The position numbers and the translations under genes were made by a program. Under the pieces are notes generated by a model. The model was not told where the DNA came from. It did no database searches and saw only the letters and a program-made list of their open reading frames with translations. This document shows positions 279-309 of a stretch of 64,000 nt of DNA, piece after piece. Position 1 is the stretch's first letter. Every line of letters begins with the position of its first letter. This DNA is from Escherichia coli (lineage in GTDB: Bacteria > Pseudomonadota > Gammaproteobacteria > Enterobacterales > Enterobacteriaceae), in assembly GCF_044647545.1 (NCBI RefSeq), contig NZ_CP172818.1; one strand, written 5' to 3'.

Positions 279-309
279 AGCCCGCACCTGACAGTGCGGG
301 CTTTTTTTT
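279..309 (+). terminator. thr attenuator intrinsic terminator
   Basis: GC-rich hairpin agcccgcac/gtgcgggct followed by a T8 run, between thrL and thrA. Confidence 0.85.

Follow-up and report, generated by a model that had tools for sequence, protein, structure and literature searches.

Attenuation of the thr operon has long been established for Escherichia coli K-12, and the length of the thr T-tract is reportedly the subject of a primary paper by Lynn, Kasper and Gardner from 1988. Attenuation mediated by thrL is restated in PMC9792984, and PMC3993855 and PMC5558911 recognise U-tract length as a determinant of termination efficiency. PMC3993855 describes a canonical U-tract of 7-9 nt, a range in which eight and nine T both stand at the long end. 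It also states, citing Lynn 1988 on thr and a pyrBI study, that at least three U adjoining the hairpin are necessary and that longer tracts serve efficient release. A 2026 preprint (10.64898/2026.01.22.701115) reports that U residues up to +10 add predictive weight for terminator strength. Here we describe the thr attenuator in a 64,000-nt stretch of E. coli DNA (NZ_CP172818.1; hereafter the window) and compare the length of its T-run with that of other genomes.

Anatomy of the thr leader

Position 1 of the window is the standard E. coli coordinate origin. The list of open reading frames places the leader peptide thrL on the plus strand at 190-255, with 21 codons, 8 of them for Thr and 4 for Ile, and a TGA stop at 253-255; these coordinates equal those of the annotated thrL in MG1655 and ECONIH1. 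With cmscan, the whole Rfam Thr_leader model (RF00506, model positions 1-118) matched the plus strand at 191-310 with 121 bits (E = 7.6e-25), above the curated gathering score of 55, and RefSeq labels the corresponding span 'Thr leader region' in other genomes. The minimum-free-energy fold of 190-310 reached -46.7 kcal/mol (z = -7.2). In this fold an upstream leader hairpin of segments 1 and 2 (195-260, plus strand) spans the Thr/Ile codons, in agreement with the first group of helices in the consensus structure from Rfam. Segment 2 (GGTGCGGGCT, 244-253, plus strand) is the 5' arm of the antiterminator, an inverted repeat of 10 nt (244-253 and 279-288) with 100% complementarity, whose helix had -20.9 kcal/mol in a fold of 236-293. 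By a direct repeat (233-253 and 282-302), segment 2 also repeats the 3' arm of the terminator.

The terminator itself is a GC-rich hairpin of segments 3 and 4 (280-301, plus strand), in which GCCCGCAC (280-287) and GTGCGGGC (294-301) form an 8-bp stem with seven G-C pairs around the 6-nt loop CTGACA. Eight U start at the base of the stem, encoded by the T8 run TTTTTTTT (302-309, plus strand), which is flanked by C301 and C310. A tract of six A (A6; 274-279, plus strand) lies 5' of the hairpin and can pair with the six U nearest the stem. The terminator appears as an inverted repeat of 14 nt (274-287 and 294-307; 100% complementary), and the fold and the Rfam consensus both contain a 16-bp terminator helix. 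Its GC core alone gave -15.7 kcal/mol and 96% of the ensemble, and the hairpin with the A6:U6 extension gave -24.0 kcal/mol (z = -8.1 against dinucleotide shuffles), a structure far beyond chance. Because both use segment 279-287, antiterminator and terminator are mutually exclusive.

The element has the composition that defines an intrinsic terminator, a GC-rich stem-loop followed by a U-tract of 7-9 nt. A simple terminator scan called the hairpin on the minus strand only, with mirror-image A/T tracts, and a sigma-70 promoter scan of positions 1-600 gave no match. Of the structural genes that the attenuator controls, the first is thrA (aspartate kinase / homoserine dehydrogenase I), at 336-2798 on the plus strand. 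Its ATG at 336 lies 26 nt past the T-run, and MRVLKFGG begins there within an open reading frame at 294-2798; thrA is likewise annotated at 336-2798 in ECONIH1, which has 0 mismatches to the window here. With thrB at 2800 and thrC following, the attenuator stands directly 5' of thrABC. By every sequence-level criterion tested, the element reads as the thr operon attenuator, already known and ordinary.

From what is established for the operon, we infer how attenuation would proceed at this locus. As long as translation of the Thr/Ile-rich leader peptide proceeds without a stall, a transcript begun 5' of thrL would stop at the hairpin (280-301) and the U-tract (302-309). A shortage of charged Thr- or Ile-tRNA would stall the ribosome in the leader peptide; segment 2 (244-253) would then pair with segment 3 (279-288), no terminator would form, and transcription would enter thrABC.

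Length of the T-run across genomes

The original prediction, a thr attenuator terminator with a T8 run one T shorter than in K-12, was borne out by direct comparison. MG1655 (NC_000913.3) has T9 at 302-310, thrL at 190-255 and thrA at 337-2799, and when the first 2.8 kb of the window and MG1655 were aligned globally, a single-T gap was the sole difference before position 551. Thus thrA begins at 336 rather than 337 because the window carries T8 and MG1655 T9, and the poly-T tract was correctly named as the cause of the shift downstream of a thrL in its usual place. The prediction also took K-12 as the yardstick and T8 as the deviation, and this did not hold, since the window belongs to a different E. 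coli lineage and T8 is the majority allele. The window differs from K-12 by 28 substitutions in thrA alone, is 97-98% identical to it overall, lacks IS186 and has a dnaJ-nhaA interval unlike that of K-12. The 28 substitutions, the overall identity and the absent IS186 rule out that the window is K-12 sequence with an error.

We searched 5,426 complete RefSeq E. coli genomes, 5,424 of which gave a match, with queries of 89 to 92 bases that were identical except for T-run length, such that one gap brought the identity below 99%. Records at 99% identity or more numbered 3,725 for T8, 1,652 for T9, 19 for T10 and 22 for T7. Each count includes six records of partial coverage that recurred in every search, as is evident from the full-length perfect matches for T10 and T7 (13 and 16, against 19 and 22). 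One T10 match, Nissle 1917 (CP007799.1), aligns in two pieces. After correction, about 3,719 of the 5,424 genomes (69%) carry T8, 1,646 (30%) T9, 16 T7 and 13 T10; the 69/30 split counts assemblies and is not a population frequency, because the genome collection is clonally biased, and the many laboratory derivatives of K-12 raise the T9 count. The comparison with other E. coli thr leaders that had been proposed as a check therefore came out on the side of the window: most E. coli genomes in the set carry T8, and the T9 of K-12 is a minority form.

Fifteen reference strains were read directly. T8 was found in 11 of them (HS, REL606, IAI1, E24377A, 55989, UTI89, CFT073, 042, Sakai, IAI39 and CE10) and T9 in the other four, MG1655, O26:H11 11368, EC958 and SMS-3-5, which we take to belong to phylogroups A, B1, B2 and F. 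T8 presumably extends across phylogroups A, B1, B2, D, E and F, so that, on these assignments, every phylogroup with a T9 strain also has T8 strains. Run length thus varied both between and within phylogroups in this set of 15, and among K-12 records one differed from the others. The occurrence of T9 in four phylogroups fits recurrent +1 slippage, and recombination may be an alternative source of the scatter. T8 and T9 would then represent a one-base homopolymer-length polymorphism, for which replication slippage would be the simplest source.

Some genomes depart from this layout in other ways. In CFT073 (NC_004431.1; 302-600 compared) the sequence diverges immediately past the T8 run; IS200C, whose transposase gene is annotated at 453-911, appears to have inserted in the interval from the attenuator to thrA. 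In O157:H7 Sakai (NC_002695.2), thrL has 27 codons (190-273) owing to 18 nt inserted among the Thr and Ile codons, so that the T8 run lies at 320-327 and thrA starts at 354. With a 301-nt query, about 328 genomes fell in the 90-95% identity band, and both of the two sampled from that band carry the 18-nt thrL insertion. A DH1 record (NC_017638.1, 257-348) has T10, whereas the other K-12 and DH1 records have T9, which indicates that the attenuator T-run occasionally slips or gets miscalled. T10 was also found in NZ_OW967975.1, NZ_OW968124.1 and NZ_OW968288.1, assemblies of similar size with adjacent OW96 accessions. In NC_017638.1 and the OW96 records, T10 reflects either very recent slippage or homopolymer miscalls.

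Genome contigs of other species were scanned with the pattern AAAAGCCCGCN{8,13}GCGGGCTTTTTT, which is generic and also matched unrelated terminators in many phyla. Nine thr attenuators were recovered among the matches listed, a small and haphazard outgroup sample. The E. albertii attenuator has T8, as do seven of the eight other Enterobacterales attenuators among the matches listed (Citrobacter werkmanii, Enterobacter cloacae, two other Enterobacter, Superficieibacter electus, Acerihabitans arboris and Photorhabdus caribbeanensis), and Yersinia aldovae has T9. Because E. albertii and most of these outgroup attenuators carry T8, T8 is probably ancestral for Escherichia and T9 derived.

The nearest relatives found for the window were isolate 624 (NZ_OW967003.1, Spain) and ECONIH1 (NZ_CP009859.1, USA). 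Both have 0 mismatches to window positions 1-15264 and T8 at 302, and two single-A gaps (5531 and 5541) are the only differences over that span; no end-to-end match to the first 25 kb was found among complete E. coli genomes. Relative to K-12, conserved genes contain no frameshifting indels anywhere in the window, and indels inside K-12 coding sequences are limited to yaaX, the IS1 genes insA/insB and yabP/yabQ. Four T-runs differ in length from K-12, all of them shorter in the window. Besides the attenuator, these are the intergenic runs at 35339-35346 (downstream of carB), 39098 and 51061-51067, each one T short of K-12. The runs at 35339 and 39098 are lineage alleles, since the window agrees there with isolate 624. 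Systematic under-calling of homopolymers was rejected at 302, 35339 and 39098, where the window matches that isolate.

Other irregularities of the record

Window positions 15720-18480 correspond to the ompK / sulfatase / IS1-zinc-domain interval of isolate 624 but are riddled with deletions. From 15720 to about 16970 there are approximately 10% single-base deletions and almost no substitutions, and the 1,260-nt stretch at 17221-18480 is rich in A, has runs as long as A16 and lacks long open reading frames. We found that 97.8% of this stretch is an ordered subsequence of its 2,288-nt homologue, compared with 83% when sequences were shuffled. Stretch and homologue each contain 680 A, consistent with every A having been kept, and in the stretch C, G and T are lower by 52%, 71% and 66%. 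Perfect identity returns abruptly at 18480. The interval looks like a sequencing or assembly artefact rather than biology, and it justifies general caution about errors in the record, though not at the thr attenuator.

Smaller irregularities were also seen. At the K-12 IS186 site, between GGCGGGG and ATCACTCCCCGCC, window positions 15265-15288 contain the insert TCTCCC-A17-TGG, which is absent from isolate 624 and may represent an IS186 junction that was collapsed or garbled, or some other artefact. The single-A deletions at 5531 and 5541 both lie within a hairpin downstream of yaaX, where the deletion at 5541 interrupts the otherwise perfect palindrome AATGCCGGAT TGCC ATCCGGCATT; the two are probably either errors or mutations private to this record. 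An IS1 copy at 21023-21794, between nhaR and rpsT, occupies the K-12 IS1A site but is only 96-97% identical, and a 1-nt deletion at 21541 shifts its insA frame. Isolate 624 has espX1 and a four-gene fimbrial cluster at this position instead. In isolate 624, rihC is annotated as frameshifted (12823-13736), and the window has one extra A at about 28874. The window rihC is free of indels when compared with K-12, which places the error or mutation on the side of isolate 624.

Discussion

We consider it highly probable that this locus is a classical thr attenuator carrying the common natural T8 allele, and that the extra T of T9 strains is most likely neutral or nearly so. The original prediction had raised a homopolymer sequencing error as the source of the T8 run. 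Were the strain really T9, with one T dropped in sequencing or assembly, several features would be in keeping with this: homopolymers are error-prone, the same record shows base dropout at 15720-18480 and two single-base deletions against two otherwise identical assemblies, and rare run lengths do exist (T7 in 16 genomes, T10 in 13, with T10 in DH1 NC_017638.1 against T9 in other K-12 records). However, two independent assemblies with 0 mismatches over 15.3 kb both carry T8, conserved genes of the window have no frameshifting indels relative to K-12, and the window agrees with isolate 624 at the T-runs at 35339 and 39098. The length at 302 agrees with relatives and population alike. The rare lengths T7 and T10 together make up only about 0.5% of assemblies, which sets an upper limit on error and rare slippage taken together at this site. 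Since T8 is at once the majority, the nearest-relative and the prevailing outgroup state, present in both nearest relatives and about 69% of genomes, a sequencing error is very unlikely, to the point that we regard a dropped T as next to negligible.

The effect of the ninth T can be considered from the predicted folds. Past the six U paired with A6, T8 leaves two U unpaired and T9 three, and the two lengths gave the same predicted structure at -24.0 and -24.3 kcal/mol, a difference of 0.3 kcal/mol. The antiterminator makes no contact with the T-run, so the competition between terminator and antiterminator should be unaffected by its length. The ninth T sits at the distal end of the tract, has no pairing partner and takes no part in the antiterminator; on this structural modelling the T8/T9 polymorphism would therefore most likely be neutral or nearly so for attenuation. 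The change from nine to eight U is not expected to have a large effect on termination, and the ninth U may have a slight quantitative influence. We found no isogenic comparison of T8 and T9 in the literature, in which Lynn et al. 1988 was covered through later summaries only.

A different reading makes T8 and T9 (rarely T7 and T10) recurrently switching, selected tuning alleles, akin to a contingency locus, that set basal read-through into thrABC or the oligo-U tail of the leader RNA; the T9 of K-12 would then terminate slightly more or slightly less strongly than the T8 typical of the species. In its favour, T8 and T9 are each frequent, the presence of T9 in four phylogroups is compatible with repeated switching, and U-tract length influences termination efficiency according to PMC3993855 and PMC5558911, with predictive weight for distal U up to +10 in the preprint (10.64898/2026.01.22.701115). 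Against this, both lengths lie inside the canonical range of 7-9 nt, the variable T is unpaired and outside the antiterminator and is worth 0.3 kcal/mol, and neutral slippage with clonal sampling, or recombination, explains the same pattern equally well. Moreover, almost all attenuators sampled from other genera have T8, and this speaks against any need for switching. We therefore regard selected tuning as improbable and retain the reading of a common, nearly neutral T8 allele.

The T8 run carries little biological weight and serves mainly as a calibration point for standard E. coli coordinates. MG1655 has the minority T9 at the first intergenic homopolymer of the standard coordinate system, and therefore a thrA start at 336 rather than 337 is normal in most E. 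coli. Such a one-base offset gives no reason to flag an error or a regulatory variant. If the ninth U measurably changed attenuation, results on thr regulation in K-12 would be slightly unrepresentative of the species; nothing here points to it.

Compared with known systems, the thr attenuator of the window is identical to that of K-12 in thrL, antiterminator, hairpin, A6 and the downstream sequence through the thrA start, and differs from it only in T8 against T9 and in the resulting thrA position. It shows no difference in hairpin, A6 or T8 from the other E. coli T8 reference strains; IAI1, HS, REL606, UTI89, 042, IAI39, CE10, E24377A, 55989 and O157:H7 Sakai all have the same hairpin, A6 and T8, followed by CGACCAAAGGTAA. 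With canonical intrinsic terminators and the trp, his, leu and pyrBI attenuators it shares a GC-rich hairpin and a U-tract of 7-9 nt, as described in PMC3993855. Like those four attenuators, it has a competing antiterminator set by the position of the ribosome on a leader peptide, whereas its own regulatory codons are Thr and Ile. Unlike canonical terminators, the thr terminator is nearly symmetrical owing to the upstream A-tract, whose A residues are reportedly not required for termination, as the title of a 1995 paper by Yang, Scott and Gardner has it.
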